A stretch of 63,841 nucleotides of DNA, the filler included, from Cystobasidiomycetes sp. EMM_F5 (taxonomy: Eukaryota), in NCBI GenBank assembly GCA_051047955.1. It is 3 parts of 3 records of this genome, joined end to end, with 100 filler letters (N's around TTAATTAATTAA, not from the genome) between each part and the next. Parts side by side here need not be neighbours in the genome. Positions count along the whole stretch, not along the records: positions 29,646 to 57,644 come from JBPGPT010000069.1; 2 more parts are not named here. The stretch is one strand, 5' to 3'. Below, one piece after another: positions 29,546 through 50,628 of the stretch (positions are counted from its first letter, which is position 1; every line of letters begins with the position of its first letter). The notes under the pieces are model-generated. The model was not told the origin of the DNA and ran no database searches. It was given only the letters and a program-made list of their open reading frames with translations. Both the position numbers and the translations under genes were made by a program.

Positions 29546-29645
29546 NNNNNNNNNNNNNNNNNNNNNNNNNNNNNNNNNNNNNNNNNNNNTTAATTAATTA
29601 ANNNNNNNNNNNNNNNNNNNNNNNNNNNNNNNNNNNNNNNNNNNN
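29546..29645. other. Assembly gap with artificial six-frame-stop linker
   Basis: 100 nt of N with central TTAATTAATTAA. Confidence 0.99.
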
Positions 29646-32600
29646 AGAGACGGCCGGCTTGACCCTTTGCAAGTGATCGAGTTTTTGGTGTGCGTGACAC
29701 AAGACATGGCGGTTTGCAATGTAACTTACTTCATAAGCGGCCTGACCAAAACAATGATGGCGTAGATAATGTGGCTAGCGCAATCGTCACTAAAATGGAC
29801 GTTGTATCGTACGAGACCAGTTGCGCTCAGACATTTGCTGTAGCCGGTGGTACTCGAGATCTTGCCATTCCATATGAGAATCGTCCTAAGGACAGCTGCA
29901 TTGGGGTTGCGAATAGTCTCCGAAGCAATCTCTCCTCCCCTTTGAGGCGGACCGTGTGCGAAATGGCGATAATACCTCAAGAGTGCTTCCAATTTCCAGA
30001 CGCTATGAAGAGCTGTCGCCGCTGCAATGGTAGAGACAGATAGATCTGAAGCACGGTAGCTGGGCAACAGGAATCGATCGATGAGACGCTGATCTCCGAA
30101 TATCTTGCGGATGAGCAGGCTCTGTAACTCCTTGATGCCGAGGTTGGCATCATTGGAGAGGAAGTTGGCCCCGCGATGGGAATGAACAGGAGTATCATGT
30201 ATACTGGACAATGGCGGCAGAAGATTAAATATTTCAGACAGCTCCAGGCCCAGACAAGCCTCTTCTAAAAGCTGTAGCATGTCATTCCTGATAGTACCAG
30301 TGAGGGTTGCAGCAGTCGTTGTCCACGAATAATGACTACCACTCCACGTGAATTGGTGTGGCATGTCTATCCACAGTAATCGAGGGACTGGTGTGCTCGC
30401 CATTACAGATTGCAATACGAGACCTGCTAGCGAACTGAGGTGGTCAAAAATGGTCGGGCGACCTATTGTGATAAAGTATTTTGCTTCCAACATTATGCCG
30501 TCGTGCACGCTCTGTAGGTTGTCGACGTCGGCACGTTTGACCCCCGCATGATATGCTAACAAGCGAGTGATGTACCTGGTTGCTGCAATTAGACTGGATA
30601 GACCGCGAGGATGTGCGAGAACGGCACTGTCTTGAAGATACTGTGGGTCGCCGACCACTGTATTGGAATAGCCCGATGTGATGAATCGAGAGGCACGTCT
30701 GACGGGCCGCGCCGATATCATCGACAGAGCCAAAAATGCGACGAGTGGGTGACGAATACCATACCCTACGGTGAGATGCGTCTTCTTCGGCAGCAGTACC
30801 GCCGCAAGCAAGTCTATAATAGCAGATTGAATTGGAGTGAGGCGACGGTGGAGGTAGCTGTGTTGGGAGGCGGCGTCATAGCTGGCTGGCGCTTCGACAA
30901 TATCCAGGACAGCTTCGATGAGAGAAGCGTCCCCTGGTACCGCTTGCATCATTAGATCGCGAGCGGCTAGTCGAACGATGTTGCCTGCCAAAGTACTGTC
31001 GCTATCTCGCTCGATTGCCTCCTCAGGTCTCAACACTGCTCCAGCATCATCGTCGTCGGCAGTATCATCTACCCCTTCCCCAGATCCATCCTGATCTTCG
31101 TCGTCATCCTCTGCATCGTCTATCATAGGCTCCGACAGGGTAGCGTCCAGCGTTGGTAGAAGAGGAACGGCTACTTGTGTACTGGAAGAAACTAGCGTAC
31201 TTGTGGCGTATGAACCAGCTGAGCGACGAGGACGTGAAATGGGATCTTTGCGCTGTGTACCGTGTAGCATAGACTGCGGTAAAGACTGTACCTCTCCTGA
31301 ATTTCCGTCCATTTGCAAAGGGGCGGTATGCTCGGTCTGAGCCGATGAGAGGCTAAGAAAGAGGTCGAGGAGGGCAGAACATGCGTGCCGAGCATCGTCG
31401 CTTAGCGTTATGCCGAGGCCATCGACAACTGCTGGCGTCCAATTGGTCTGGCAATGAGCCGTCGAAAACAGGTCGTCGCGCATAGAAACGGAAGAGTAGT
31501 CACGAACTGAGCTCAAGGAGCCCTTACGTCAGTCCCTGGCACGTTCTGGAACATTCAAGAACATTACGTCATCATAGAATGTTCTGGAACCCGGTGGAAC
31601 CTTGTGGAACATTCTGGAACTTTTGCCACATAGAAGCTTCTGGAAAGTTCCAGGCTGCACAGCCACCGCCACCTACCTGTAATATAAAAGATTACTCTTC
31701 TGTTGTATCTCTCCTTTCCTTTCTTCAGTTCAGATCTTGCCTAGTCAACCCCTAGTGGTGGTCTAGTTCAGTAATACATCCCTCTTCCTCTTTATACCCC
31801 AGCCTGGTAGTCGCCTGTCGCCTACTCAGCTCCTCCTTCTATTCCACCTTCCGACAAGAGTTCTGCGAAGCCGAGTGGACGCGAAGATGCCATAGGAGTA
31901 TTCGTGTAGCGACGTCGGCGTAGCGGTGAGCAGTACTGGTCTCTTGCAAGCGACGGAAATTCCGCACAGATTGCGATGCAGCCTCCAAGCTGTAAATTGA
32001 CAGATGTCAGCGGTATGTTGCACCCTGCAGATTAAGAGGGTCCTTACCCCGTCATGGTGTCGGTACGATCAGCCATTAACAGCTTGCGGTCGTGTATGTC
32101 GGCCTTGGCAGCTTGTTCCATCAAAAGCATGAACAGCCCTCGGACCTCCTTTCTGAGGACAAACTCTGCAGACCTCGTGTCGGTGAGAGACAGAGGATCT
32201 GGCATAGTAAGGTTCCTCACTAGTCCAGGGAATTTAGCAACAGCTACGTTCCAGCCCAGTACATTCCAGACCGGATTTTCCACGTGTGCTGCTACGCCGC
32301 CAGACGAGGCCATCCTGGCTTCGAGTCCACGCTGTTGACGCATAACAGCATCGATAAGAGTGAGAGGAGCTAATGGCGGACGCTCGACCACAAATCCAAG
32401 CGTAGGATCGTGTACATTTGTGGGGTTTGGTGCGAGTATCCTGCGAGCGATATGCAAACGGCTGATATCCAGAGTAGCTCCACGAGATGCATAGTCCGTT
32501 ACCGCTCGATGAAAGGCCGAAAGGATCCATCTGTCAACTTCAATGTGCTTGGGCTTACCGGCCACCCACATCGTTTGATAAACGGGTGTGGAGAGGCCTG

Positions 32601-33823
32601 GTCCCAACCCGTTCTCATTGTCGTTACGACGCTGGTTACATTGTCCCTTGCCGCAGCCAGAGCGCTTGTACGAGTCGCGATTGGCATATACCGCCTTGCA
32701 GATTTCGCAGGACCATCCGTCAAACGACAAAGATGCGCCTTCCAGCGGCTGAGTTGGTGCTATGCGCGCATCGAATACAGAGGAGTCGGCAGCGGCATGA
32801 TAGGAATCTTCGGGCCCTGTCGACTGTGTGCGATGAGAGCACAGCAGTCCACAAGCGATATCGGATCGAGGGTGGGCAGGGACGTCGGGTTCAGAAGCAG
32901 AGCAGTCGGAGCAGAGTTTGAAGCGAGCGATGTAGGCGTCCACGACGGATTCAATAATGCTACTGCTCTTGTGCGTGTCGCTGTGGTGAGTGCGTATGAC
33001 ATGTGTCGCGGCTGAGCGTCCTACGAGGAGTCGGCGGCAGTCGCGGTGCGAGCATATGAAAACGCCTCCGTAGGATAAATGGAGGTATAGGCCGCACCCT
33101 ACTAGATCTGCAGGGAAGCGAAGTAGAGATTGGTCTGGATCTACAGCTACGGGCATGGTAACTAATCCCGCCGCATCAGGTATCCAGTTTGCAGCCGGCA
33201 AGGGTGGAGCAGCCGCAGCAGCCTGAGAGCTGACGATGAGAGTCAGACTTTCGTCGGCATTCGCGGAACTAGCTCCTTCTCTATGCGCTGGAGAGGCATT
33301 CGCGGATTGTGAGTCGTGTTGATGCAAATTCCACGGTGGTAACGGTGGCAGGCTGGCTGAGGAGATGGCAGGCGCTGATGACGGACGAGTAGGTCCAGAT
33401 AGCTGTGCTATAGTCGGCAATGCAGTAGTGTTTAATGCGGAACTGGTGTCTGGACTGACGTCGATGAGAGACGCAGGGGCCAGACGCCGCTTGTGTGAAT
33501 CGGGAACGTCATCACTGTTAAAGGATGTATCGGCCTAGTTGACTTTAATATCGCCGTTCTAAGACTCACCCAGTCCCGTAGGGTGTACACCCGTTTGCGA
33601 TCCATTCTTGCTCGGTGGCAATAGGGCCAGGTATTGAGAAAGTACCAGCGGGAGCGCACGAATGTGCACGCCTTGCAGCTCTCTTGCCTTTAAAGACCCT
33701 ATCACAAAGAGGGCATGTGTAGTGCTCGCGCGAGGCCGGCATAAAGACTTGGTACTGGAGGGCGTCCCATCCTATCATAAAGCCGTACACGCCGTCCGCG
33801 GTAGAATGGGTACCAGCAGACAT
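29646..33823 (-). pseudogene. Large spliced gene: Zn-finger/OrsD(DUF3505)-like N-terminus plus the region found upstream of fungal telomere-linked RecQ helicases, with a tyrosine-recombinase-like motif; disrupted by an LTR and running into the gap
   Basis: ATG 33823 (CPLCDRVF..HSC) splices in frame (GG|GTGAGT..AACAG|T) to ORF 32044-33420 (ICSHRDC..HVIRTHH; CEIC..RDSYKR), then intron 32047-31991, exon FRRLQETSTAHRY, LTR, and ORF 29726-31516 with HFAHGPPQRGGEIASETIRN..RTILIWNG..TGYSK..LVRP; intron donor GTAAGT at 29729. Confidence 0.7.
31527..31856 (+). mobile_element. Solo-LTR-like insertion
   Basis: Ends (C)GTCAG...CCGACA; nGAAn arrays, TATAAAAG at 31683 and a pyrimidine-rich tract; sits between two exon pieces of the host gene; no TSD found. 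Confidence 0.65.
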
Positions 33824-34445
33824 AATAAAGGAACGAAAGAGGGCGGCGGTTGCGAGTTTGCATATAGAGAAACTGTTTGTGTTGTCCAGTAGAGGTGAGC
33901 AAAAGTGGGGGATGGTGGCGTGGGGATAATACAGAGGCAACATCAACAAGCAACAACAAGCTGGGACTTAGTCACTTCGCATGTGCACTGCATTGTACTA
34001 CTCTACAGTAGCAGCTGATCTCGCTACAAAGCAAACATTACAAACAGGACGTACACCGTGCGCACTGCGGTTGCAAACGAGTGACTAACTCGAGGCGCTG
34101 ACGCCTTTCGGAAGCGGCTACGGGAGTCTTGGGGTAATTCATGAAAGGCGCTGCATTCCGGAGCGTGTCAGCGTACCAGATAGAAAGAAAAAAATGGTGG
34201 CTGGAGAGCATCTTACTAAGAGCGCAGGAGGGTGCAACAAAGGCGAAGTTAATGGATGGGTAGGCGACTAGAAAACGACCATTCACTAGCGGCGCCGATG
34301 AGAGGCGCACGCATAAGTAGAACTCGTGGCCTATGTGGAATGTGTAGCACCGTGTATGTAATCTCAAACGATGTGTAACAGAAAAAGCGAGAGTGCCGGT
34401 CAAAAGCAGAGCGAGGAGCAACACCGGCTGTCAAATGCATACACG

Positions 34446-36041
34446 TCAAGCCAACTCCTTGAACCTTTGAATGGCAGCATTGCGCAACAGGTCGAAACGG
34501 CTCCAGCTGAGAATGGAAGCAGTCCGCTCAGCTTCGGAGAGGGTCGTTGCGTTGAGGGCCGCAGTCAGACTAGCGAGGTCCGATACCGCGGCCATTTTGA
34601 AGCATTTTGTGGGCTCCGCGTCGTAAAAGGCCATGTACCACTTATGCTGCGGAGTTGGGCGTTTCGCCTCATTGAAAGCCGCTGTGAGCTAGGGTGTTTT
34701 ATCAGACGCCGTGATTATGGATGGACAGCCTACGACGTACTTTCATCGGTCCAGCGAGATACAATGCGTTGTCTTGGAGAGTCATAACGCTCGGGTAGCC
34801 AGCTACGTGAACCCAGCCTTTACAGTTGTCGGAATCTACGAATGCGATGTTGTGTTGAGTTCCGTTTGGGCCGACATGGTGCTTGCTCCCAGCATGATTG
34901 TACTTGACTACTGAAAAGAATGACGAGGGCAGGCTCAGCCCAGCCTGCTGTGCACAGAACAGAGTGTGCTGAGTCTGAAGGTGAATTTCGGGTCAGGTGG
35001 CATCTGCACGAAGGCAAACGAGGTGAACCTACAACGATACGTGGATCGCCATTGACGCCGTAGTACAGGGGCAGATTGTTAAGCAACTCCTCTCCAAGCT
35101 TCTCCGCCTGGATTTGCAGGTCGGTGAGAGACCTTACAAAGCCGGGCAGATCCCCTGAACTCTTGCTGAGTTTCCATTCGCTGTTGCTGATGACAGCGTC
35201 CATATCGCTGCACATGCGCACGGCAATGCCGATATCGGCCAAATCTGTATTCCATTCGTCGCCCTGCTTGCAAGGGTCCCAGAATAAGGGCCTAACCGAC
35301 TCGTATGTTGCCCTACGGGTGTCGAAACCGCCCGCGCTGATTCGAGTTGGCGACGCGCTTGCCAGTAGACGAAGAATATGACCCGCCTGTACTAGATTCT
35401 AAAGATCCAGACGAAGCGATTGAGAGAGCACGCTTGTGGAGGGGCGTAGCATCGATGAGAGACGTACCACCCTGCACTTGCGCTTGGAGATGAGTAGTTG
35501 GTGAGGAGGAAGGACCACGGGCAGGAAGGACGGTAGAGTTGGATACCGGAACGGGATTCTCGCCCGTCATCGGGCTAGAAACAGCCAGCAGAGATGCCGG
35601 GGGGCTAGGACCGCTGTAGGAGAATGCAGATATGTTAGCGCAATGTAGCAAGCTGTACTATCAAACCTACTCTGCGACGCGAAACGGCGAGGTCGCTTCT
35701 GCCAGGGCAATGAGGCGATCCTGCTCAATTTCGTTGGGGTCGGGACTGGACGTGAACGGCCAGCCCGAGTGAGGATCCAGGCCTAAAAGCGTGTAGATAT
35801 CTCCGCCTGGCGGATACTGTCCCTCTCGGAGCCATGCTGGCGCTTTCATCGCGATAAATGCCTGGCAAGGGAAGGCGCGCGGCCTTTTAATGCCGTTGGA
35901 AAAAATGGGACTGGAGTGCTGGCGAGAGGGATGGAGGCTCAGGCCATCGCGCTGGAGTGGATGCAAGTGGCCAGGGCTGCAAGGCAGACGGAACGGAGGT
36001 GGAGAGGGGCGCAATGATAGATTATGGATTTCGATGCTCAC
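34446..36041 (-). CDS. Probable spliced hypothetical protein (island cargo); structure uncertain
   Basis: Chain of co-oriented ORFs (35667-36041, 35313-35651, 34820-35242, 34446-34634) ending at GT-like donors; no recognisable domain. Confidence 0.4.
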
Positions 36042-36846
36042 AATAGCCTGTATATAAGTAATACAATGGTACTACTGTCCAATCCTATCTCCTTTGCGTA
36101 GTCCAGCTTAGGCCTGTAGTTTATGAATCTGCGCAACCCTCACACCAAATCCAGGAGCACCCGTATGCAAAGCTGGGGCGGCGAGTCAGCCGTACAGGGC
36201 CATGTCGATGAGAGACATGGCACACTGCCGTTGCTATTGTTGACATGATAGGCTGCGCCTGAGTGGGGGAGGGCAGAAGCACAATCGATCAGCTACGATT
36301 GTCTAGACGTAAATATAACGCGATTTACATGTGCTACTTCACCGTGTGAAGATCCTGTGTAGATGTAGCAGAGCCTAGCATGTGCATCGAGACCGTATTT
36401 ACACGCATGACTTTACACAGAGAACAGGCTAGTAGGACCACTAGCAGACGAGTATCCGTAAAACTACCGAAAGTACGCCAACTCTAGCGTGGACAGACTA
36501 ATGCAGACCTCTGATTTCACTGAACGTCGGTACATTTACTACAGGCTCGGGATGTTTACGCAAAAGGAGAGACTAACCGTGAAAACGAGGAGATTGTATG
36601 ATTGGAAGTCTGCAGGGGCGAGCACAAGCGATGTCAGAGCCTCTTGCCTTGCAGAGGGTTGACGTATTCAAAATACTTACGGAAAGATTTGAAAGCTGAG
36701 CGAGGAGACAATGCGGCGAGCAGAGACGATGAGAGTCTCATGCCAAAGGCGCCATCGGGGAAACAGAAACGGTGTGGGGATTCTCGCTGCTGCATGTAGA
36801 ATGCCGAAGCCAGCAGAGTGGTAGCGAGCAGGACGGGCACGTACGC

Positions 36847-39800
36847 TCAAAGTGGGACAAGGCCAGTCTTGGAATACGGAGAAACACTGACTGTCGGCCA
36901 TTGAGGAATGAGATTGCCAGAGTAGTCTGCAGTGTGGCGATGTCGCTGGTCGACGTCGTTGCGGCTGAGCCTGAGTGGAGCACGAACAGCCGGTGTTGAC
37001 CGTGTAAGCAGTGCGCGCTCCTCGACGCCCTCTCTCAGAGGAATGACGTAGTGTTTGCCGCCATCGCTGGAGATGTGCTGGATGTTACAGTCTGCTACGA
37101 CGACATCGGCCTCTTCGGCGTTGTACCCGAGTTCGCTAATGATTTCCGAAAGGTAGGGGAACCCTGGTGACACTCTCATGTCCCGAATGATTCCCTCGGG
37201 CATGGGTCGCACTGTTGATGCGGTCGACGCCGACGATGCAGAGGTCGATGAGAGACCTACTGCAGCCGATAGCGGTTGCCAGCCTACGGTGTGTGTGCGG
37301 GGAGCCGGAGAGGTACTGGATGGGCCCTTTGACATATACGCCGCCATTCCGAAAGGATCGTCTTCGTCATCGTCGTCGTCGTTGTCGTCGTTGTAAGTGG
37401 ATTCAAAAGTCTCCCGCTTCCTCTGCCTGCTCTTTTTGCCCCGCCTACGTCGCTGCGATTGAGCGGGCATCTCATTCACCGGCGGCTGGGCCGGAGCTGC
37501 CTCTGCGAGTCTGAATTAGCCAGAGGTATCGCCATGCTAACGGACGACATGCTCACCATTCGTTGAACTACCGAACAACTGGCCGTAAGCTACCCTGCGA
37601 CGGTTGACTTCTGCGTCGGTATGGCGGGGTCTGGCGATGCTGCGAATCAACCAAAACAAAGCCCGTCGGCCTTCCTGATCAAGAATAGGTGCACTGTCCA
37701 AGCCGGGAACCATTAAATACAGTCGTTCGATGCAGCAACTGTACATGCAGCCTTGGAATTTGGCGATATAGCCTGGGTCTTGCAGATATGGAGCTCCGAC
37801 GTGCCGACCGACGCTGAAGGAATTGACGAGCCATAGCTCTTTGAGATTGTGCAATTCTTCGACGAGGCAGAACCAAGAGAGACACGGCATGTCTTCCACG
37901 ACCAGTTTTGTGATGGTTTCGAAGGCAGGGATATACCAATGGCGTACAAAGTCCGTCCGGAACAGACCGACAGGGTCGTAGTAAGGACCTCCAACGAGAA
38001 CCAAGCTTGTAATACCGCGACACGAGGAGAGAAAGTCGAATAGCATCCACTCGTACACATAAGGGACGACGCTGTCCTCGAGGCGGGAGCAAGAGTGCTG
38101 TACGCGAAAATCCAGTGACAGACTGTGGAGGAGAACATACGCGCGAGATTTTGTCGAAGGATAGTCGGAAATGTAATGCCTCCATTGGGTATCAAACTGC
38201 TGCGGCGTACCTACGATGCCCGGCATGTTGTATCGCTCGCCAAAATCCCGGATGTATGCTTTGGGGTATAATGGCCCCGTCTCGCCTTTTCCGTCGTTGT
38301 ATAGCCGAAGGACAGACAGCAGAGACTCAAAGGCATCGATGGAGCGGATTTTGAGCGAGATACCTTCGGAAACAGACCCTCTCCATTGCAGATTCCAAGC
38401 ATTTGGCCGCTTGATAGCATGCAATGCTGCCAAGATGTTCCAGCTTCCCAAAGATATTGCCAACAGCGAGCTGGAGCGAGCTTCCCACGTCGACAGAGTG
38501 TCGCTGACTGTAGTGCCGCGCCAGACAAGAGTTGAGCGCTCAAGAGCGGCTCCGTAATTGGAAGCTGCGTCGTCTGGGTGAGAGGCTACGCCGTAAGTGA
38601 GCAGAGCTTCTGATGGGAACGGGAATCCTAGGTGCAACAAATCGTCCAACACGAGCCTAAGCCCATGATCTTCGACGACGTTGTCTATATGTACTCCGGC
38701 ATAATGCGGCGTCTCGTGCGATTTTGGATATCGGTTATGCAGATTGAAGAAGATGGCCTCGCGTATCTGCACGAATTTTGGCAATGGATTCAAGAAACGT
38801 AGGCTATCCCAGTCGGATTTGAGGGTGCTCGTTGGATATTGCGATGGCGACGCCTCAGGGGCTGCGGAGAATGCAGTGGGTCCAATGCGTGACTGTACGA
38901 GTGTGAGTGCGGCAGCGGCAGCTCGAGATGACGGCTTTGATGGAATGATGTCGACATCTACGGCCGGTTTTCCAGCAGTGCTGCCTGAATTGAGAGCTAC
39001 TTTGGCGGAGGCTCCTGGTGTCGATGAGAGACATTGTTCACCTGCCGGTTCGCTGACGGTCGAAGGGATGCGGGACACAACAGGAGAGTCGACGGGCTCC
39101 TCGAGTGACAATGTCGATGAGAGACATATGTCTAACCCGCGAGCCAAATCAGCGGAGCCCGTCGATGAGAGACGACTTGCCGATATGGAAACTGTCGGTA
39201 GTGTCTCGCACTCGACGACATGTTGTACTGTAGCGACGGCCTGTCGGGACGCATTAGATTAGTGAAAAGCTGGTTGCCAATAGTAACGATAACGGACCGC
39301 CTGTTTGCCGACGGGCAGTTTCAACGTTGGAGAATGTATAACCGAGCTGGCCGGTGTGGGCAAAGTATTGCTTGAGCTGCTGCTGCTTTGAGAGGTGGAC
39401 CTATCTATGGCGACCGATGAGGGGAAACTGTGATAGCAAAGCTCATCAGCTACTAGAATTGCGAAAGTGTACTAAAGCACGTACTAATCCTCGGGACTAC
39501 ATTCATGGAAAGTATCATGCGACGCGTTGCTGGGAGAAGGCGGCAGACGCAGTCCAGATTTGTCGGCTGTAGAAGGCAAGGGGGTGAGAAATCTAGACAG
39601 GCCGAGCGCGTCTATGTCTTGCTGGGATAAAAGGGCGGGCCAGAGGATTGCGGGCTCGCCCATTCCCGGAAAGTCTGATGGGAGTGGCCGAGCAGCTCCA
39701 GGGCGTGTTTTGATCCATGCTATGAGACCGAGTCGCAGGCAAGCACTAGCTGCTGCTCTAGCAGCGGCGTCCCTCGTACGGAAAACATCGCCGGGGTAAG

Positions 39801-40952
39801 CGCCCACTTCGAAGACGTCGCCCAGAGGTCCACGGACTTGCAGGACTGGCCAGTAGGCGTTGACTTTTCCTTGCGTAGCGGCAGACGATTCTACTTGATG
39901 CAGCCGTTTTTGACCACGGATTGTCGCTGGTTGAGCCGGCTGCTGGGTAACGGACGGAGTCCACTGCTGAAACGCAGAGTAGTACAAGTGTGCCCCTTCA
40001 CTATCATAAGCAAGGGATACATGACCCGCAACGACGTGATAGCGAAAGTCAAAGTCGGGCATAAGTTTTGAGAGGAGGAGCATAACGAAGGGAGCGTTGC
40101 AGTACCCGGGGATGACATCGTCGATGAGGGACGGTTGCCATGTAGGAGATGTGCAAGTGAATGGTTCCTCCCTAAACCGTGTCACCATTCTTTGCTCTGC
40201 CTCGCTGTAGACCATCTTGTCGCAATCGCGTCCCACAGCTGATTGTCGGCACAAATAGCCGCCCATGTTGCGGCGTTCTTTCCGGGATATAGGCGCCATT
40301 CGCCTGCCGGGCCGAATTCTATGATAATGCACGGACACGGCTGACCTTCAACGTCCTCTGACATGCTCGTGGATATGTATCGGCGGAAATCGAGCGGGCA
40401 CAATCTCTTGTATCGATCCTCACACAGGTTCCTTGGGGGCGTAAGGTCTGATAATCCTACTATGAGACTGCTGACTAGGCGCCTGAAGGTAGCCTTTACG
40501 GCCTCTTTCGTTCCTGCGCCTGTCGACATCGCGATGCGGTCCCAGCCATCGGCATTGGAGACGCCTGCGAATGTGTGGAATGACACGCTGGGAGACGCGA
40601 GATAGGTTGGCATACCGGTGGAAGTGGTGTGCCGCAGGACGACCAGAGACGTCTCCACACAGACATTTTCCTCTTCAGGGAGCGAATCCTGTACCGTTTC
40701 CTGCAAATCGGCCAAAAGAGTGGAAGGCGAGGGATCGACGTCGTTGGGCGGCGCTGACGCATGGTAGATTGCAGTGCGTTGGCCAGTCGCCTGGGATTGT
40801 ATCATATGCATGACTTCACTTGTAGCGGTTCGGCCCAAAGACCCCTTTTCGAAGACATGGGTCCACAACTCAATTGCATCTTGGCCAGTCAGAAGGGCAC
40901 CGTCTACATAGACATCTATGCTATTGGCTGCCAGCTCCTTGATTTCTGCCAT
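36847..40952 (-). pseudogene. Unknown large protein, copy A (dsRBD-like + LRR/RNI-like + conserved C-terminal block); frameshifted near 40215
   Basis: ORFs 40182-40952, 39484-40338, 37537-39147 and 36847-37479 are joined by in-frame introns 39484-39428, 39297-39241 and 37556-37503; collinear with copy B. Confidence 0.75.
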
Positions 40953-41369
40953 TCTCAGAGACGAGCGGAGAACGCGTGGTGACTTCGATGAGAGAAGTGC
41001 ACTGAGCGGTTAGGGGGTAGTGCGGCCTGTTCAACTTCGATGGGAGAAGTGTGATACAGGTGTGCAGAGGGCGGGGTGGGATGTTTGAGCTGGATTGTTC
41101 GAATCTTGAGTGGCGTGCTGTAAAGACGGGTCGAGATTAGCGGATGTAAGAACAAATGGAATGGGAGAGCGTCGTCGATGGGAATCGGATGGTGGAGAGT
41201 AGTGGATCACTGGCTACTACTCGCCGTCAGTCCTGCTACGGTGACTCCCGAAATAAATCGAGTGCAAGGCTGAGGGGGGACATGACGAACACGACAGAGT
41301 AACGAGCGACAGCAGATGCAGACACAGTCACAGCACTGTCGATGAGAGACAGTGCTGTGCTATGCCTAA

Positions 41370-41370
<1 letters not shown>

Positions 41371-41410
<40 letters not shown>
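41371..41410. repeat. (CTG)13 microsatellite
   Basis: Read directly; the paralogous position 48387-48401 has about 5 units. Confidence 0.95.
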
Positions 41411-42779
41411 GCCTGGCCTGCCTTTGCCTGGACGGTGAGTTTGTTTACTCACCTGGCGGGACGGAGGGAAGGGGAGGGAGGGCGAGTTTGGTATCGATAT
41501 GATGCTGCTGACGGTGGTATCGTAATGCTATAGCTGCTGCTGATGGTTGTCGTCGGTCGTCGCTTGCAGGCGGTCGAGTGAATTGGTGGTTGAAAGAGAG
41601 AGAGGGGCAGGGAAGGGGCTGGTAACTGATGACCGCGTACCGGCGACAGAACGACAGAGAGCATGGATATGATTCAAGGGCAGCAGTCAGTAATCACCAC
41701 GAATGCTAGTCAGCTGCTGCTACGCGTCTCTCATTGACGCTGGCTGCAGTTGGCAGCGTCGAGCTCGAGAAGGCGGTGAGTGTGGAGAGGAGGCACGGCG
41801 AGTGTGAGGAGCGTGTGGGACTAAACTACTACGTGTCAGTGTCAGTCCTGATCCCTGCTCTACATCTTCTGCCAGCTCGGCCTGGACGGTATAATCGCTC
41901 TTCTCCATTGTGGCACTCTGCAAGCGACCAAGGCTCCCGGACGACATGTGATGCATTGTACTGACTAGAGAGCTAATGCTATATGCTACAACGAAGAAAC
42001 TGAGCTCCCTCCCGCAATTTCCCGTACTGCCGAATCTGGCAGGTGGGGCTACCCCTGAGCAGATTTTACGCGTCTGAAGGAGCGGAGACGCGTAAACTCC
42101 ACTGCTAATACTCACTCTTGGGTGGAGCTGCTCTGCACCCCACCTGTGACTTTCTATCGCTACTTGCTGCTGCTTCGTGCCGGACGTGTAGCAAAAGCCC
42201 GTACGACGGCGTGGAGCGGGCAAGGAATGGCGGATAATGAGCGTAGGCTGCAGTGTGCTGTCCGCAGGTGTACTGTCTCTCATCGACAGAGTAGCCGGCT
42301 CGCGAGGAGCTGGTATGTTCGGCTGGACATTGGGTGCGGTTGCGGACAGGGTTCACAATCGTAGCGAATGCCAGCAATGTTGTAGCAAGACCAGAGGAGA
42401 GCCCAATCGCCTAGTAATGCCAAGCAAAATTGGATTCATTGGCCTACAACACTGACATCCGTGCTAAAAGCGAGCTACACTGACAGAGACTGGTGAACCG
42501 AATTTAATGACAGAACTACTGAACAGAGACTTTCCTGCGAGTACAATGGCAAAACGCTACGAACGGATACTGTGAAGCTGAAGCTGCTGACAGTGTTACT
42601 CGTGTATGCCGGAATGCGGAGACGATGAGAGTCTCACGCACTAAGCCGGCTGAGGGGAAGGCGGAGAAATAGAAGCTGGACCATAAGAGCGAATTAGAGG
42701 GATCGGGCTATCTAAGCTGCCTACGTAACTCTACTCACTATGGGAGGATGCTGACGTAACAGCAAGAGAGGGGCAGCAT

Positions 42780-45700
42780 CTAGATCCAGCCGTCGTCTTC
42801 GGTATTGTACGGTGGTGGCTGATTGATATTGTTGTAATTAGTTTGTCCCCAAGTCGACGTGCTGTGATGCTGAGTATTGTAGCCATGAGAGGCAGTCGGA
42901 GGGTACATAGTGCGAGCAGACTGCTGATGGCGATGACTGGATCCATGTTGACGGTTGTCGGAGTAGCTGTGGTAGCTGCCTGGATTGTGATGATAGTTTC
43001 CGCTGCCATTGTTCCCGTAGTAGCTCCCAAACTGTCCGGCTGCATGTTGAGGAGGAGCTTCATTGAAGTGGGCAGACGTATACGGGGAAGATGCATAGCC
43101 ATTATACGACGACGAAGGGTGGCCTGAGTGGGACGTAGACGACTGCAGAGCGTAAGACTGAGGGCGTGGCTGAGCAGTGGTATGCCACGAGTCTTTGAAG
43201 AGGTTTGGCGCATTACTCGGACGACTGGCAGGGTATGAGCTACGGCCATTGGATCGGCGATTCGAATTGTTGGCTTGACTGATTCTAAAGGCCTCTTCAA
43301 CTGACACGTAGGGCGACACGTCCCTTTCGGGATGTTGGGGTATCGCTTCAGCATCCGTAGGGGCGAACCTGGAGTCGCTTTGGTGCTGAATGTCTACGTC
43401 TAAGCGAGTCATAAGTTTTGCGTCCGACTGCACTTCGCCCAAAGGACGAGTGTAAAGAGCCCTCTCCAGTACTCCTGGCCGTATGCTGGAATGAACGTAA
43501 AAGTCTGCATCGGATGGCGAAATGTACTGAATGTCGCAGTCAGCTACGTTGACGTCGAAAGCCTCGCCAGGAGAAGACAATTCCTCGATGAGCGCTGCGA
43601 TATGATTGAAGCCGGCCGATATACGGACGCGACGCAGGACATGAGGACCTATCTTGGGTATCACAATAACCGGGGTCGATGAGAGACCCACTGGCATGTT
43701 GCTATTCCCTGCAAACGACTTCTTGGACGGGCGGTAAAAGTCGGCATCCAATTCGCTGTCCGATGAAGTATCGTCGTCTGTGCCCTGTCTCTTCTGTGCA
43801 ACCTTCTTGCGCTTTGAAGCCGCTTTCGACGGCGCAGGACCAGTTACAGCATTGCCTAGGCCATCGGTGAGACCGACAGGCTGTCTTCAACTGACACGTA
43901 GGGCGACACGTCCCTTTCGGGATGTTGGGGTATCGCTTCAGCATCCGTAGGGGCGAACCTGGAGTCGCTTTGGTGCTGAATGTCTACGTCTAAGCGAGTC
44001 ATAAGTTTTGCGTCCGACTGCACTTCGCCCAAAGGACGAGTGTAAAGAGCCCTCTCCAGTACTCCTGGCCGTATGCTGGAATGAACGTAAAAGTCTGCAT
44101 CGGATGGCGAAATGTACTGAATGTCGCAGTCAGCTACGTTGACGTCGAAAGCCTCGCCAGGAGAAGACAATTCCTCGATGAGCGCTGCGATATGATTGAA
44201 GCCGGCCGATATACGGACGCGACGCAGGACATGAGGACCTATCTTGGGTATCACAATAACCGGGGTCGATGAGAGACCCACTGGCATGTTGCTATTCCCT
44301 GCAAACGACTTCTTGGACGGGCGGTAAAAGTCGGCATCCAATTCGCTGTCCGATGAAGTATCGTCGTCTGTGCCCTGTCTCTTCTGTGCAACCTTCTTGC
44401 GCTTTGAAGCCGCTTTCGACGGCGCAGGACCAGTTACAGCATTGCCTAGGCCATCGGTGAGACCGACAGGCTGTCCAGGCTGAGTAACAGGGCGGTCGAA
44501 GAGTGGGCCATATGCTGCTCTGCGCCGGCGTACTTCAGCCGCCCCGTGACGTTGAAAGCCTATGCTCCTGAATAACCAGTAGAGCATCGCTCGCGCATTG
44601 TCGTCCATCGACCAAGCGTTGTCGAGACCGGATACTTCAAGTCGCAGCGACTCTATTCGACAATATTCGAGACGCCCTGCTGCCTTGGGAACGAAACCAG
44701 GGTCAGGTAAGCTGACAGCGCCTACGCTACGACCTGTCGAGAAGCAGTTGATTAAGGTAAGGCGCGTGATGTTTTGCGTTAGATTCAAGAGACAGTGCCA
44801 GGTTTGATAAGGCATGTCTCTTATGGACAGGGTGGTGAGGGTTTCCTTGCAGCCGATATGCCATGCGTAGACGAAATCTTCTCGAAAAAGGGCGACGGGA
44901 TTGTAGAAGGGACCGCCGACAAGATGTAGCGATTGCAAGCCGACTACGCACGACAAGAAGTCGAAGAGCATATGCTCGCTTACGTATGGAATTGTGACTT
45001 TATCCAGTGCCGAGCGTTGATGCTGAATGCGGAAATCTATGGCCAATTTGTGCAGTAGCACATAGGCTCGCCCTGCTTTAACGTAGCCCCCGCTGATGAA
45101 CTTCCACCACTCGTCACGAAATTGCTTTGGAGTTCCCCATATGCCCATCATTTGAACTTGGCTGCCGTAATCTTGGAGGTAAGCTTTGGGGAAGAGTGGA
45201 CCCGTCTCTCCTTTGCGGTCATGGTATAAACGTAGGACTGCCAGCAAGGACTCGAGTGCGTCGATGGACCGCAGCTTCAGAGCAATGCCTGTGTCTGCTG
45301 AACCGCTCCACTGAATATTAAACGCGTTTACGCGGCGGATGGAATGTAGAGCGGCCAGGATGGACCAATTGCCCAAAGAGATTTTGTCCAAAGCGGCTGT
45401 CCTTACTCCCCACGTTTCTAGCGTCTCCTTTGTCTGACTACCTGTCCATACGAGTGTCTGTCTGGCGGAAACAGCACCGTAGTTGCGGGCTGCATCGCTC
45501 GGTGGAGATTCCTCGCCGTAAGTGATGAGCGTTTCGCGAGGAAAGGGAAAAGGTAGTGTGAGCCGCTCATCGAGTGTAGCTCGCAGCGCTATGTTGTTGA
45601 TTACATCGTCGATGTGCACGTTTCCGACATCTAGTACTTCGTCTTTGCGGGGATAACGGTTGTGCATCGAATGGAAGATGGCGCTACGTGCGTCGATGAA

Positions 45701-47967
45701 TGTGGGGAACTTTACGAGCGGACTGAGGAGCTCCCAGTCGGATTGGATAGTGCTCGTAATCCCGGAGGGGTCGAACGGCAAGGGAGGGGGAGCGAGTAGA
45801 ATCCTAGACGCAGCAGAGATAGCTGTACTGGATGCAGTTGCCGCTCTTGCTGCTAGGTCGACTGGGACGTGCCCGGTGAGCTTCATGCCAGGCTTCCACT
45901 TGATTCTCCCCGACTTTGAAGCTACTGAGGCCGATGCTACTGATGTCGATGAGAGACATTCTTCGCTAGCCGGTTCACTGACAGTGGATGAGACGCAAGG
46001 GATCGAGACAGTATCATCTAGTCGCGGAGAAGGCTTGCTTGGTGATGGCAATGTCGGTAACGTGCTCGTTTCCTGTTCAAGTACATCGCCAGCTACTAAT
46101 GTCGATGAGAGACATGTTTCGCTGGGTAGTGCTGTCACTGCAGCTGCCACTGATGTCGATGAGAGACACTTTTCGCTTGCTGCGGTGATAGGAGGAGACT
46201 CTGGACGAGTAGCGGTTTGGTGCTGCGGGAAGCCAAAGTCAGCGTAGGCGGTATGAACGAATTTGGGTAAAACGCACAACTACTGCCACAGCCGGTGAAT
46301 AGGATGCCTCGCTGCCGCTCCAGTCGAGCTCTTCCGTGTCCACGTCCATGCTATGGGCAACTGACATAACTGGTGCTCTGAAAAGAACAAAACGAGTCAG
46401 TGGATTGGAAAAAGCGGTGCATCATGGCTTACTTTACTGCATTCTGTGCAGGTGGTGACTGGGGCGTGGGCGGTTCGTCTATATCCATTGATGAATCTAA
46501 TTGTGGGCCGGCTGCCAAAGACTGGGCGGGCTCAGCCGCAAAACTCTCGCTGAGCGGCGTCAGAGGCGAACTAGGCGTAGGAGGAAAGGGAGCCGATTGA
46601 ACAGAGGGGGGTGTGTATGGCACTAGAAAGTCTGCTAGTCCCAATGCGCTAATCTCAGCTTCGGTGGCAGCTGCTGGCCAGCGGTTAAGCGGCGGTCCTG
46701 TACCCGGGAAATCGACGGGGATGGAATGGGCAGTGCTTTGTAGTCTCCTGACCCAGCCTACTAGTCCGAGTCTCACGGCGGCGTTCGCAATCGCCCTTGA
46801 TGCGAGTTCACGTGTTCGAAACACTTCATTCGGACCAGCTGCAACCACTAAGCAGTCTCCCAAGGGACCGATGATCTCGAGGAGGGGCCAGTATGCGTTG
46901 ACCAAACCGGAGGTATGCTGTGAAGCGGCATTCTGGTACGCTCGATGAGCGGCACGGCCCGTATTTGCTGTGGTAGATGTAAACGTGGACGGAGTCCATG
47001 ATTCGTATGGAGCCAAGCGTGCTTCGTGCGGATCAACTGTTTGGTCGATGTAATAGTAGCCGGCGACAACGTGGTAGCTGAATTGAACGTCGGGCATGAG
47101 TTTTGAGAGGAGGAGAATAATGAAGGCTGCGTTGCAGTACCCGGGGATAACATCGTCGGTGAGAGACGGTTCCCATGCGGGGCTTGTCCAATTAGCGGGT
47201 GCACTCCTAAACTCTGCGACGATTCTCTCTTCTGCTCCGGTTGGTGAGTAAAGGTGGTTCGCTATAGCCCAGTAATCGTCCTGCTGAAGCGCGTTGGTCC
47301 ATGCTGCCGCATCGTGTCCCGGTACGATTCGAAGATGTGGTGGGTCGGGGCCTACAATCATGCAGATTGAGCCTTCCGTCAGGAATAAGTGGGTACGTGG
47401 GTCCAGCGGCACGACACGCTTGAAGCGATCTGTTACTTGATTTCTTGAAACAGAGGTAGGTGGAGGCTGTACGCCGAACATCTGTCCGAGACCTCTCAAC
47501 GTGGCCTTGATTTGCTGTTTCGTATGCACGCCGGGCGTCATAGCAATGCGATCCCAGCCTTGATCGTTGGCTGTCACGCTGTTGTAAGTGTGATATGCGA
47601 CGCTGGGTGTGGTGAGAAAAGTGCGAACACCGCTAGCGGGTGTCAGATGCACTGTCAGCTGACCTATCGTAATCTCGCGGCGTTGCTGCCTATGTTCATC
47701 GGCTTCGAGGCTGGACCGGATGTATTCCAGCTTGGTCAACGCTCGAGTAGGTGCGGAGACGGGATGGGGAGTGCTGTGAAAGAACTGCAGCCTTGAATCG
47801 GCCTGTTGCATAGTGAAAAGGTCTGTGATCTGAGCTCGGACATGTGCTGATATGCCTTGGCCGTCGAAAGCGGAATCCCACAGCTCGGCTGCATCTTGGC
47901 CAGTCAGAAGGGCACCGTCTACATAGACGTCTGTGCGACTGGCTACTAGCTCCTTGATTTCTGCCAT
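42780..47967 (-). CDS. Unknown large protein, copy B (same architecture plus a Y/N/Q/G/S/H-rich tail); frame broken by a 590-bp tandem duplication
   Basis: ORF 46429-47967 joins ORF 43856-46279 through in-frame introns 46432-46378 and 46277-46223; tail in ORF 42780-43751; shares MAEIKEL..DVYVDGALLTGQDA, DDVIPGYCNA..LLLSKLMPD and MLFDFLS with copy A. Confidence 0.75.
43294..44475. repeat. Apparently perfect 590-bp direct tandem duplication (43294-43885 and 43884-44475)
   Basis: Identical text at offset 590, identical ORF translations (43491/44081, 43679/44269) and a 2-bp TC microhomology at the junction. Confidence 0.97.
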
Positions 47968-50628
47968 TCTCAGAGACGAGCGGAGAACGCGCAGTGACTT
48001 CGATGAGGGAAGTGCACTGAGCGTGTAGGAAGGGGTGCAGCCTGTTCAACTTCGATGAGAGAAGTGTGAAGCAGGTGTGAGGGAGAGGAAGGGAGCGAAT
48101 GGCTGGACTGGCTCCGTCGTGCTGGAGTGGCGTGCTGTAAGACGGGTCGAGATTAGCGGATGTAAGAACGAATGGACTGGGAGGGCATCGTCGATGGGAA
48201 TTGGATGGTGGAGAGTAGTGGATCACTGGCTACTACTCGCCGTCACTCCTGCTACGGTGACTGCCGAGGTAGAGCGATTCCAAGGCTGACGGCGAACGCG
48301 GCGGAGGTGACGGACGGGCGAGCGGCAGCAGATACAGACACAGTTACAGCACTGTCGATGAGAGACAGTGCTATACTATGCCTGAGCTGCTGCTGCTGCT
48401 GCCGCTGCCCTGTCTGCGCTCATCATCTGAGAAGGGCGGGTTTGTTTACTCACCTGGCGGGACGGGAGCAAATGGAGGGAGGGCGAGTTTGGTATCGATA
48501 TGATGCTGCTGACGGTGGTATCGTAATGCTGGAGCTGCTGCTGGTGGTTGTCGTCGGTCGGCGCTTGCTGGGGGTCGAGTTGGTTGGAGTTTGAGGGAGA
48601 GGGGCGGGGAAGGGGCTGGCAGCTGGCGACTGCGTACCGGCGACGGAAGGACAGAGGGCATGGATATGATTCAAGGGCAGCAGTCAGTCATCACCACGAA
48701 TGCTAGTCAGCTGCTGCTGTGCGTCTCTCATCGACGCTGGCGGGGGCTGATGGAGTTGGGTGGGCGGGCGAGTGGAACACTGAGCAGGTCAAGGGAGGAG
48801 AGCAGCGGACGAGGGTGAATCTGGTACACGTTAATCAGTGCTTGGACGTGGCTGATCAGCTGTATCTGGACTGCGGGGCTGCCGGTGGTGGTCGCGGCTC
48901 AGCATCCCAATGGACGTATGCAGGGAGCACAGAGCAGGCTGAGCGGCAATTGGCAATGTGGTACTGACTATACTGATGCTACTGACTATCACTGAGTACA
49001 CTGTTCCCTCTCCCGTCTCCTCCCGACCTGCCGAATTTGGAAACGGCCGTACTACCCCTGAACGAGTTTCGACGCGAGTTACGATGCGGAGACGCGTAAC
49101 TTGGGTGTGATTAGCCTCACCGTGATGTGCACTGAGAGTATATGGTGTTGCAGGAGGTTTGAGCACTGTTTGACGGGTGTATATCTGACTGGCTATGACA
49201 AACAGAGCTGGGCGAGCCTACAACGGATATCTGAAGCCGTAACTGAAGCTATAGGCTGGTTGCAAGCGTGGTATGATGCTGCCGTGTGTGTGACCTGTCT
49301 CAGCTGGATGTCTGTCTCTCATCGACAGCTCCGAGCGGGATGGCGGGGCTAAACAGATGTGAGCGCCTATGGGGGTGAGAGGATGGGTAGAGAATGGCGC
49401 TGTGAGTGCCGAGGTGATGCTACTGCCTGTCTGATGTGACTGGTCGCTGATTTACGTGGAAACGGTGATGTTTGCGGCGATGAGGACTGTGACGGCTAGG
49501 CTAGCGTGGGACTGGAGCGTAAGCGGACGTAATAGATGAAAGTGCACTGTCGTTGTGCATAGTATGCATGCGTGTCGGGAAGCTGTCTGATGTCGTGTCG
49601 ATATCTGTCACTGTAGCTTGAAGTGGCTAGCTGGGTTGTCTGACGACTACAACATGGGAATACTATGAGACAACGGCGGACCTACTACAGTATGGTACTC
49701 TCTGTAATGCTGCTGCGGCCACTCCTGTCCTGGTCATGCCTCTCATCGGCAGCAGTGGGGGGTTGCATGAATGACTTGCCATGCGGGCCTGCACGGAAAA
49801 GCGACGGTAGTCTCGAGTAGGGGAGGGAGGACAGTGTATGCAGGCAGACTGCATCGTGGGAGATGGTTAAGCTACTGTCCGAGCTGGAATTGTCTCTCAT
49901 CGACAAACTGTGCTCGGCTGTACAGTAGTTTGGCTGGGGGGCTGGTGGTCTGGGTGAGCGAGCTATTTGCGCAGACTGACACTGATGCTGAGGATTGGGT
50001 ATACAACAGACAATTGCTACATCGTCGTGCTATACTCTATTGCGCTGCCTGGAGTCTTGCACTGTGTTATGGTCTCGTCTCGTTGGGGCTGTTTTGATTC
50101 TACTGGAACAGGGTAGAATGTCTCGAATCGCTGTCAGGTTGGAATACTAGCATATACTACCTACACACACTGCTCTCATCGCTGCTGCTGCTGTGTCTCT
50201 CATCGACACTCAGTGCTGTTGGTGGTTCTATGGCGTGCCTGGGTGGCAAACGTCGAAGGGCAACAGCGCCGTCAATAAACATCTTGGAGAGCTGGGAATT
50301 GCACTGAGTGGCTAGATACAACGTCTGAGGGTACTGTCTTTGCCTGCTTCGCTATATCGGTGCTGGTTGCTGTGCTGTTGGAGGTCCGAGCTCCTCAGTG
50401 AGGAAAAAGGACCGAAGTTGTTATCTCTGGCTACAGGAGTGCTGGAGATTTGCTGTTTGGTATGGAGATTCTTTGACAGTGCATGGCGATGCTCCGAGAC
50501 TTATACGCTCTTCCGGCTGCTGGGTTTTCTGCAATGCAGACTTGAAGTTTTCTCCCCATGTTTGCCACCAATTTTTGGACTTTGCCACCGGAATGGGGGC
50601 CCATTCCTGGCAGTATATAAGTAGGTTC

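Follow-up and report, generated by a model that had tools for sequence, protein, structure and literature searches.

A 63,841-nucleotide stretch of DNA from Cystobasidiomycetes sp. EMM_F5 (GenBank assembly GCA_051047955.1; hereafter the window, meaning the whole stretch) carries a family of 35 nearly identical hairpins scattered over and between a group of orphan genes. The family is a real and strongly selected nucleic-acid signal in the orphan-gene island of this basidiomycete yeast: its members keep a common fold, their stems covary, purifying selection has maintained them over a long time, and within transcription units all of them point in the direction of the genes. On the minus strand the consensus reads nnGTC-TCTCATC-GACnn, a 5-bp stem closing a 7-nt loop. 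All 35 copies lie in 30,905-50,216, and the remaining 44 kb of the window contains none; a preliminary description of this DNA, made from the sequence alone, had ended the family at 46,168 and missed the seven copies on the plus strand. The reading that we prefer, and that in our estimate falls just short of an even chance, is that the copies act as multivalent stem-loops on sense-strand RNA bound by a putative protein.

Within the window the hairpin family is confined to one island

The window contains 30 occurrences of the 9-mer core CTCTCATCG, compared to 0.84 expected (100 dinucleotide shuffles, maximum 4), and all 30 cores are found within 30,916-50,205. Exact TCTCATC 7-mers number 42 (12 on the plus strand and 30 on the minus strand); at least four contiguous Watson-Crick pairs flank 28 of these 42, all 28 lying in 30,917-50,198. 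When the loop was allowed a single mismatch and the stem had to reach 4 bp, 36 sites were found, 35 of them in the same interval and one a stray at 3,495. Counting every hairpin that has a 7-nt loop on 5 bp or more of stem gives 82 per strand of the window, among which TCTCATC is the loop of 22 and no other loop appears twice. A covariance model returned 35 matches at 20-35 bits, followed by next-best hits of 14.1 bits (35,442-35,472) and 13.4 bits (3,483-3,513), the latter being the highest score outside the island; the model was built from 34 copies, which match by construction, the 35th being the copy in a 592-bp duplicate (see below). Over 19.3 kb the density is approximately one hairpin per 550 bp.

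The window consists of three contigs (1-29,545, 29,646-57,644 and 57,745-63,841) that are artificially joined. Its four runs of N (29,546-29,589, 29,602-29,645, 57,645-57,688 and 57,701-57,744) belong to two linkers of the form N44-TTAATTAATTAA-N44, at 29,546-29,645 and 57,645-57,744, in which TTAATTAATTAA is a six-frame stop; adjacency across the linker points is meaningless. Only the middle contig (27,999 nt; JBPGPT010000069.1) carries the hairpins. The covariance-model scan found no copy in the two other contigs (35.6 kb), none in the 7.4 kb that separate 50.2 kb from the end of the middle contig, the part that holds the retrotransposon, and none in the retrotransposon itself. The latter is a complete Ty3/gypsy chromovirus (52,318-57,152, minus strand) encoding gag, protease-reverse transcriptase-RNase H and an integrase with a chromodomain; a pair of long terminal repeats was looked for inside the contig and not found. 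Direct reading of the middle contig also revealed short GT...AG introns with CTRAY-like branch sites, and together the introns and the Ty3/gypsy element indicate that the host of the hairpin contig is a fungus. The likeness to uptake sequences proposed in the preliminary description does not survive these observations, nor do bacterial DNA uptake sequences and uptake signal sequences as candidates: the host is fungal, a fold rather than a linear word is required, and neither the other two contigs (35.6 kb) nor the retrotransposon contain any copy. Its other suggestion, a packaging-like signal, is possible and is considered below.

No Rfam family matched 29,646-52,300 at E values up to 1, and ARAGORN predicted no tRNA in 29,646-57,644. 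Pattern scans requiring two neighbouring motifs returned 17 loci, of which 16 came from metagenome contigs and one from viral contigs; by a rough estimate, this number is about the chance level for 21 fixed bases. None of the 17 loci proved to be a true hairpin cluster, the second core mostly having 0-2 stem pairs. These collections are sparse in fungal DNA, and their negative result is no evidence that the family is absent elsewhere. One of the metagenome loci, L017:2004-2046 in an unrelated AT-rich contig, consists of three tandem 18-nt units containing the same 13-mer, GTCTCTCATCGAC; we judged it a chance tandem repeat and not a member of the family. Narrow literature word searches showed no description of the motif among the matches listed, in which TCTCATC or UCUCAUC occurred only in primers, siRNAs and miRNAs, and a further word search of the literature found no Pucciniomycotina mRNA stem-loop with an RNA-binding protein. 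The family has apparently not yet been described in print.

Selection acts on the structure of the stem

The closing C-G pair is invariant in all copies. T-A and G-C predominate at the following two pairs, where TTC/GAA (n = 6), GAC/GTC (n = 3), GCC/GGC (n = 3) and TGC/GCA (n = 1) occur as covarying alternatives, and the sequence of the two outer pairs varies freely while complementarity is kept. Across the five stem pairs of 33 distinct 21-nt rows, 96.4% of 165 cells were paired, compared to 66.9% when partners were shuffled (none of 500 shuffles reached the observed value) and 20.6-45.5% in slid registers. Double-sided changes accounted for 47 cells versus 11.3 in the shuffles, and the inner four pairs were Watson-Crick in 136 of 136 cells. 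Selection acts on the structure of the stem, not on its sequence.

A second helix is present in 14 of 34 copies, where a 1-nt 5′ bulge (C, n = 6; T, n = 6; A, n = 2; never G) is followed by 3-6 further pairs. In four other registers, a lower helix of at least three pairs appeared in only 4, 2, 1 and 3 of the 34 copies, and a nine-pair model had 81.7% of its cells paired versus 56.1% in shuffles. The complete architecture is composed of a lower helix, a 5′ bulge, a 5-bp upper helix and a 7-nt loop. Loop positions are 90-100% fixed: position 2 is C in 35/35 copies, position 6 is T in 32 and C in 3, and the final base is C in 34/35. For segments of 31-37 nt, predicted energies range from −3.8 to −21.8 kcal/mol as RNA and from −2.3 to −13.6 kcal/mol as DNA. 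Within 147-nt windows, the mean stem probability was 0.75 with native flanks versus 0.56 with shuffled flanks (P = 0.0016), an advantage that is largely due to the lower helices.

The nearly invariant loop could be explained differently, by a transcription factor binding double-stranded DNA at CGATGAG on the reverse complement. CGATGAG is the core of the fungal polymerase A and C (PAC) motif, bound by Dot6/Tod6, and the reverse strand of each exact copy contains it. Across the 35 copies the 9-mer core varies little if at all, and copies cluster upstream of the two paralogous genes described below in both orientations. Yet a duplex binder cannot explain outer pairs that are complementary with free sequence, 47 double-sided changes or a bulged lower helix, nor 17 copies deep in coding sequence (CDS) and an orientation of 28:0 within transcription units, and we consider such a site highly improbable.

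Codon choice and old paralogs place the constraint on the nucleic acid

Within minus-strand CDS, the peptides listed in the preliminary description are indeed encoded by hairpins: SLIE (30,917), SLID (33,463), TLIV (33,235), SLTD (32,182) and CSHR (32,832), as well as the G/C/R-LSST copies at 37,247, 39,023-39,164, 43,678 and 45,948-46,158. The copy reported in a conserved domain was likewise found, as SLIDD at 40,123 in one paralog and SLTDD at 47,158 in the other, both with the stem CCGTC/GACGA, in which a C.A mismatch adjoins four pairs, and each with a single deviation in the loop. Overprinting holds for the 17 copies that could be placed in CDS, read in the frames SLI/SLT/TLI (n = 6), SHR (n = 1) and LSS (n = 10); several of the other copies occupy 5′ leaders, the stretch beyond a stop codon or non-coding DNA upstream of genes.

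Every LSS tripeptide encoded by a hairpin uses CTC-TCA-TCG (11/11, one of them in an extension of an open reading frame (ORF) into a leader), a combination expected with a frequency of 0.28 × 0.14 × 0.18 = 0.007 from local codon usage. The 7 non-hairpin LSS tripeptides among the 18 in the segments examined use six other codon combinations. We give next to no credence to the notion that CLSST and SLID are conserved for their own sake as a protein-level repeat, or that the pattern arose by chance. Three linker copies per paralog do have a wider peptide context in common, E-x-CLSST-x-VA, suggesting that these linker copies are partly internal duplicates; a protein repeat would nonetheless have to account for three reading frames, for leaders and non-coding positions, for fixed codons at 0.007 per LSS and for 30 cores where 0.84 are expected.

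Two paralogs of a large gene, A and B, share 43-54% protein identity and provide a third line of evidence on the constraint. Over 420 ungapped codons their identity is 0.60, 0.69 and 0.37 at codon positions 1, 2 and 3, respectively, and four-fold sites in identical residues agree in 18 of 69 cases versus 0.27 expected by composition. Since four-fold sites are at the random level, the duplication is old and both copies have been under protein selection for most of the time since. Against this background, 11 of 11 hairpin positions are common to A and B, and the 17-nt hairpins are identical at 175 of 187 positions (94%) versus approximately 51% in 60-nt flanks. Four of the pairs are not independent, because the 84%-identical block in which they lie is probably a product of gene conversion; when these are excluded, the remaining seven pairs are identical at 110 of 119 positions. 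Stems have changed in a compensatory manner, the outer pair from A-U to G-C at 37,247/43,678 and the fourth pair from C-G to U-A at 39,164/46,158, and the lower helices at 36,728 and 42,624 differ in sequence while both are paired. No gain or loss of a hairpin since the duplication was found in the homologous part of A and B.

The constraint is on the nucleic acid and not on the protein, as the preliminary description had argued from frame independence: copies are read in three frames and occur in leaders, in the 3′ region and at non-coding positions, codon choice is fixed in LSS, and the paralogs conserve the copies. The comparison of synonymous sites and compensatory changes that it had proposed for homologs gave a concordant answer with the two paralogs, in which synonymous sites are saturated, hairpins are 94% identical and stems are compensated. 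Old paralogs can replace missing orthologs in such tests for functional structure.

The same comparison bears on a very unlikely alternative in which the copies are selfish micro-insertions devoid of host function, either a palindromic element or a templated 12-nt insertion (the loop plus an inverted copy of a 5-nt target) that spread in frame. Palindromic elements within protein-coding genes have precedents (PMC1779305, PMC2996958), and Rickettsia palindromic elements and mitochondrial GC clusters spread likewise. By simple arithmetic, a 7-nt loop and a 5-nt inverted copy make 12 nt, a multiple of three that would be tolerated in frame, and most copies are in low-complexity linkers. Insertions of this kind are difficult to reconcile with 11/11 common positions and no gain or loss since an ancient duplication, with the paralog alignments that we read, in which no copy appears as an indel, with a bulge and lower helix made from unrelated flanking sequence, or with compensatory substitutions; moreover, 94% identity amid saturated flanks requires purifying selection. 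A currently active in-frame insertion of the Rickettsia type was rejected given the stable positions, the stems that differ between copies and the purifying selection.

Copies follow the orientation of the genes

All 28 minus-strand copies are in the sense direction of minus-strand genes. The reverse orientation would be stop-free in two of the three frames, yet orientation within transcription units is 28:0. Each paralog has two copies 23-105 nt upstream of the start codon, one further upstream and one approximately 150 nt past the stop codon, and the unit of paralog B holds about 10 copies. The seven inverted copies on the plus strand (41,729, 42,278, 48,726, 49,317, 49,741, 49,895 and 50,198) lie upstream of each paralog, where the plus strand has no coding signal and the minus strand only a weak one. 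The pattern of about 10 minus-strand copies followed by at least two plus-strand copies recurs in both duplicated units, thereby indicating that orientation follows the gene unit and not the direction of replication.

GC skew between 30,000 and 50,000 is positive in all 2-kb steps (0.05-0.27; the minus strand is C-rich) and peaks at 48-50 kb, the zone of inverted hairpins without coding signal.

A proposed reading of the hairpins as multivalent RNA stem-loops

Co-orientation with every gene, presence in leaders, ORFs and 3′ regions, an architecture of the protein-binding type and many copies per transcript all point to RNA. We thus propose a structured cis-signal that would be recognised in single-stranded nucleic acid, most probably RNA, and would present a fixed UCUCAUC loop. 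Each transcript of the putatively lineage-specific island would carry 2 to about 10 copies across its leader, ORF and 3′ region; several to approximately 10 copies per transcript suggest multivalent binding, and jointly they could form a platform for one dedicated hairpin-binding protein. Such a protein might set a common fate for these mRNAs, whether translation, decay, silencing, localisation or co-assembly, while the fixed peptides SLID, LSST and SHR would be by-products that the proteins tolerate, mainly in linkers. RNA as the strand that is read, a protein as its reader and an outcome downstream are what we infer from these features.

Several observations weigh against this proposal. Mismatched pairs favour neither strand (19 G.U versus 13 A.C, P = 0.38), and G.U is absent among the inner four stem pairs. 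Predicted folding in context is higher for minus-strand RNA than for plus-strand RNA (0.80 versus 0.63, P = 0.008), but shuffled flanks give a difference in the same direction and the contrast is confounded by the C-rich minus strand. The copy with the longest stem in each paralog probably lies in a leader intron, judging from a GTGAGT...CTAAT...TTACAG signature, and an RNA signal would require a plus-strand transcript across the seven inverted copies. We infer the transcription, strand and splicing of the island from sequence features, and confinement to the island was judged within 64 kb. Pfam scans at E values up to 10 yielded no candidate binding protein, gene1, gene2, the mid-region ORFs and both paralogs giving no credible match, and an AlphaFold model of the X domain of the large gene, from a three-row alignment, reached a predicted local distance difference test (pLDDT) score of 34.5 and was unusable.

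The main rival to an RNA signal is one in single-stranded DNA, with hairpins on an exposed or non-template strand read by a DNA enzyme such as a recombinase, an HUH-type nuclease or a deaminase. The hairpins would then tag the island as one unit, for instance an element that is or once was mobile, and the inverted upstream copies would be end signals of opposite polarity. Copies extend over about 19 kb of contiguous DNA with none in the neighbouring 44 kb, non-coding copies occur in both orientations and flip at the same place in both duplicated units, and the island comprises orphan genes beside a retrotransposon on a short contig, all of which would fit a DNA element, as would an inner stem that is strictly Watson-Crick (136/136). 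Stability cuts both ways: copies with a lower helix are predicted to be stable as DNA (−3 to −13.6 kcal/mol), whereas bare 5-bp DNA hairpins are marginal (−2.3 kcal/mol). Pfam scans detected no recombinase, Rep/HUH or transposase domain in any island ORF, and neither terminal repeats nor duplicated ends were found. Fixation of 11/11 positions through synonymous saturation points to a steady function rather than mobility, and a DNA reader needs no strict co-orientation with genes unless it is coupled to transcription. On balance we consider a DNA signal improbable, though deserving of serious attention.

A more speculative variant of the RNA proposal, which we regard as a long shot, makes the hairpin a private address code by which island RNAs are tied together through kissing loops and gathered by an island-encoded protein. 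A 5-bp stem with a 7-nt loop is the classic geometry for loop-loop kissing. If the inverted copies are transcribed with the genes, they would show GAUGAGA loops exactly complementary to UCUCAUC, and the persisting C-rich skew of the minus strand would allow such co-transcription. The large orphan protein with its Q/N/G/Y-rich tail could be the gatherer, and the whole would be a cellular counterpart of the dispersed packaging signals of viruses, or a remnant of an unrecognised virus-like element.

Should the copies be read as multivalent RNA stem-loops, they would constitute an unusually clean natural structural code laid over a protein code, with 35 near-exact copies in three frames and a measurable cost to the protein, in the form of fixed tetrapeptides, that was kept while synonymous sites became saturated. 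They would also establish a new pairing of protein and RNA in a fungal class that has hardly been studied, and would supply a natural hairpin ready for use as a tag. Should they be read as DNA, they would point towards a fungal DNA enzyme or element, so far undescribed, that reads hairpins.

Comparison with known systems

Iron-responsive elements (IREs) consist of a lower helix, a single unpaired 5′ base, a 5-bp upper helix and a small apical loop, and occur as one or several copies in the 5′ leader or 3′ region. All island hairpins have the 5-bp upper helix and a small loop, and in 14 of 34 copies a 1-nt 5′ bulge and a lower helix complete the same succession. The IRE loop is a 6-nt CAGUGN and its bulge is C, whereas here the loop has 7 nt and the bulge, present in 14/34 copies, is C, U or A; besides, the island hairpins match no Rfam IRE model and include copies inside ORFs. 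The determinant of selective removal (DSR) recognised by Mmi1 is a linear hexamer in fission-yeast meiotic mRNAs, and the METTL16 hairpins of MAT2A carry UACAGAGAA and are confined to the 3′ untranslated region (UTR); both resemble the island family in having multiple copies of a short signal over a transcript, partly coding, with a single reader protein. The 5-bp stem and 7-nt loop also correspond to a tRNA anticodon or T arm. An anticodon loop has U at position 2 and a purine at position 6, and a T loop contains UUCRA; mimicry of a tRNA arm was rejected given C at position 2 in 35/35 copies, T (32) or C (3) at position 6 and the negative ARAGORN result. Ire1 sites, the hammerhead core, box C/D and the She2 zipcode were ruled out from the loop sequence alone.

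Among systems from the literature, Smaug/Vts1 recognition elements (SREs) present the loop CNGGN on a non-specific stem; eight are found in the Hsp83 ORF, most SREs are in ORFs, and one RNA-binding protein reads the many copies and sets the fate of the mRNA (PMC4053848). As described there, SREs and the island hairpins have in common a specific loop on a free stem, several copies per mRNA and a frequent location in ORFs. They differ in the loop, which is CNGGN(0-3) in SREs and UCUCAUC, without G, here; in addition, the loop is here fixed at 7 nt, the closing C-G pair is invariant, the family is concentrated in one gene island and inverted non-coding copies exist.

The Ssd1 element, CNYUCNYU, is built on a CNYU unit and found in fungal 5′ UTRs, its recognition involving a base-specific U 'latch' and a first C read on its Watson-Crick edge (bioRxiv 10.64898/2026.08.03.741543). 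The likeness is that both are pyrimidine-rich and fungal, that CUCUCAUC fits 5 of 6 specified positions and that two copies occur in each paralog leader; an Ssd1 element was rejected since the final U is replaced by C in 34/35 copies, the first C is paired with G in 35/35 and most copies are in ORFs.

In single-stranded RNA viruses and related genomes (MS2, satellite tobacco necrosis virus, parechovirus and the pregenomic RNA of hepatitis B virus), many stem-loops with a common loop motif and variable stems are described in coding RNA (PMC6281560, PMC5699041). The island hairpins are likewise numerous and combine a common loop with variable stems. Viral packaging signals are degenerate, whereas the island hairpins are nearly exact, and the island genes contain introns and belong to a cellular genome; Pfam found no capsid or polymerase family in the island ORFs.

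Genes of the island and their products

The island contains at least five minus-strand genes, including at least one at 34.0-36.6 kb. Coordinates of the hairpins and of the delimited genes are given in Table 1.

Table 1. Hairpin copies, genes and conserved upstream block of the island (positions in the window; scores from the covariance model; CDS, coding sequence)
Feature	Position	Strand	Stem, loop and lower helix	Location or product	Score (bits)
hairpin	30905..30935	-	GCTTC/GAAGC, loop TCTCATC	gene1 CDS (ASLIEA)	32.5
hairpin	31332..31362	-	TAGCC/GGCTC (4 bp)	gene1 CDS (LSLSSAQ)	22.5
hairpin	32170..32200	-	CTGTC/GACAC (4 bp), loop TCTCACC	gene2 CDS (LSLTDT)	20.4
hairpin	32820..32850	-	TGTGC/GCACA, 5′ bulge + lower helix	gene2 CDS (LCSHRT)	
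hairpin	33223..33253	-	CTGAC/GTCAG	gene2 CDS (LTLIVS)	
hairpin	33451..33481	-	GCGTC/GACGT (outer G.T)	gene2 CDS (ASLIDV)	
hairpin	34285..34315	-	GCGCC/GGCGC, bulge + lower helix	ORF 34038-34430, candidate exon (RLSSA)	
hairpin	35111..35141	-	AGGTC/GACCT, loop TCTCACC, bulge + lower helix	ORF 34820-35398, candidate exon (RSLTDL)	
decayed copy	35442..35472	-	core CTCTCATCG intact, stem broken (E 0.13)		14.1
hairpin	36195..36225	-	8-bp stem (CCATGTC/GACATGG)	no long ORF	
hairpin	36716..36746	-	GAGAC/GTCTC, bulge + lower helix	3′ of paralog A coding region; counterpart 42612-42642	
hairpin	37235..37265	-	AGGTC/GACCT, bulge + 5-bp lower helix	paralog A (VGLSSTS)	35.1
hairpin	39011..39041	-	ATGTC/GACAC	paralog A linker (QCLSSTP)	
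hairpin	39104..39134	-	ATGTC/GACAT, bulge + lower helix	paralog A linker (ICLSSTL)	
hairpin	39152..39182	-	TCGTC/GACGG (outer T.G)	paralog A linker (SRLSSTG)	
hairpin	40111..40141	-	CCGTC/GACGA, loop CCTCATC, bulge + 6-bp lower helix	paralog A conserved domain (PSLIDD)	
hairpin	40975..41005	-	ACTTC/GAAGT, bulge + lower helix	paralog A leader, upstream of MAEIKEL start	
hairpin	41027..41057	-	ACTTC/GAAGT, loop TCCCATC	paralog A leader	
hairpin	41329..41359	-	12-bp stem	upstream conserved block of paralog A, inside putative leader intron	
inverted copy	41717..41747	+	GCGTC/GACGC, loop TCTCATT, bulge + lower helix	edge of conserved upstream block, paralog A	
inverted copy	42266..42296	+	CTGTC/GACAG	non-coding, upstream of paralog A	
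hairpin	42612..42642	-	GAGAC/GTCTC, bulge + 6-bp lower helix	~150 nt 3′ of paralog B stop	
hairpin	43666..43696	-	GGGTC/GACCC	paralog B CDS (VGLSSTP)	
hairpin	44256..44286	-	identical to 43666-43696	within 592-bp perfect tandem duplication	
hairpin	45936..45966	-	ATGTC/GACAT	paralog B linker (ECLSSTS)	
hairpin	46092..46122	-	ATGTC/GACAT	paralog B linker (TCLSSTL)	
hairpin	46146..46176	-	GTGTC/GACAT (outer G.T)	paralog B linker (KCLSSTS)	
hairpin	47146..47176	-	CCGTC/GACGA, loop TCTCACC	paralog B conserved domain (PSLTDD)	
hairpin	47990..48020	-	ACTTC/GAAGT, loop CCTCATC, bulge + lower helix	leader, 23 nt 5′ of P0001 ATG (47967)	
hairpin	48042..48072	-	ACTTC/GAAGT, bulge + lower helix	paralog B 5′ leader	
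hairpin	48345..48375	-	9-bp stem	upstream conserved block of paralog B	
inverted copy	48714..48744	+	GCGTC/GACGC, bulge + 6-bp lower helix	edge of conserved upstream block, paralog B	
inverted copy	49305..49335	+	CTGTC/GACAG	non-coding, upstream of paralog B; counterpart 42266-42296	
inverted copy	49729..49759	+	ATGCC/GGCAG (4 bp)	non-coding	20
inverted copy	49883..49913	+	TTGTC/GACAA	non-coding	
inverted copy	50186..50216	+	GTGTC/GACAC	non-coding; broken core copy 24 nt upstream (50173-50181)	
gene1	29729..31516	-		P0002, 596 aa, orphan hypothetical protein, no Pfam family	
gene2	31842..33605	-		P0004, 557 aa, 3 exons, Cys/His-rich orphan protein	
paralog A of large orphan gene	36847..40967	-		~43-48% amino-acid identity to B; frame change near 40,200	
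paralog B	42780..47967	-		P0001, 1688 aa; exons ~47967-46432, 46379-46278, 46222-43895, 43883-42783	
leader/upstream block	40863..41744	-		84% identical to 47878-48741 (~880-885 bp); 4 hairpins per copy	

The 84% identity of the leader/upstream block, set against coding parts saturated at synonymous sites, is probably due either to gene conversion or to strong constraint on a non-coding unit. The block includes the putative leader intron as well as a tract of CAG repeats, the longer one being that of copy A. Paralog B carries in its coding region a perfect 592-bp tandem duplication (43,294-43,885 = 43,884-44,475), present in the annotated 1688-aa protein; it could have arisen very recently or be an artefact of the assembly. 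At about 40,200-40,215, the reading frame of paralog A changes where that of B is continuous (AIATR... / ...EAEQRMV), through a frameshift, an error in the sequence or a short intron that escaped recognition; the hairpins of copy A are all intact.

By direct reading, the C-terminus of the large orphan protein has basic patches and a Q/N/G/Y-rich tail. Word-indexed homology searches with its Y domain, gene1 and gene2, within a limited length range, matched only the proteins of the window itself, as did a full HMMER scan with the X domain against 1.84 billion representatives. A PDB sequence search with gene1 returned low-complexity matches only (E 0.36 or worse). The ESM Atlas provided two leads: gene1 resembles unnamed fungal clusters with a score of 0.96, recognition being below the reliable level, and the Y (central) domain of the large gene has a weak leucine-rich-repeat/F-box-like likeness (0.84-0.89).

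Just upstream of the gene1 start (31,516), the minus strand at 31,527-31,650 contains a dense array of alternating GAA/TTC units with 2-nt spacing, such as GAActTTCcaGAAgcTTC and TTCttGAAtgTTCcaGAA, together with two TGACGTAA motifs. We take this array to resemble four heat-shock elements, and gene1 may be stress-induced.

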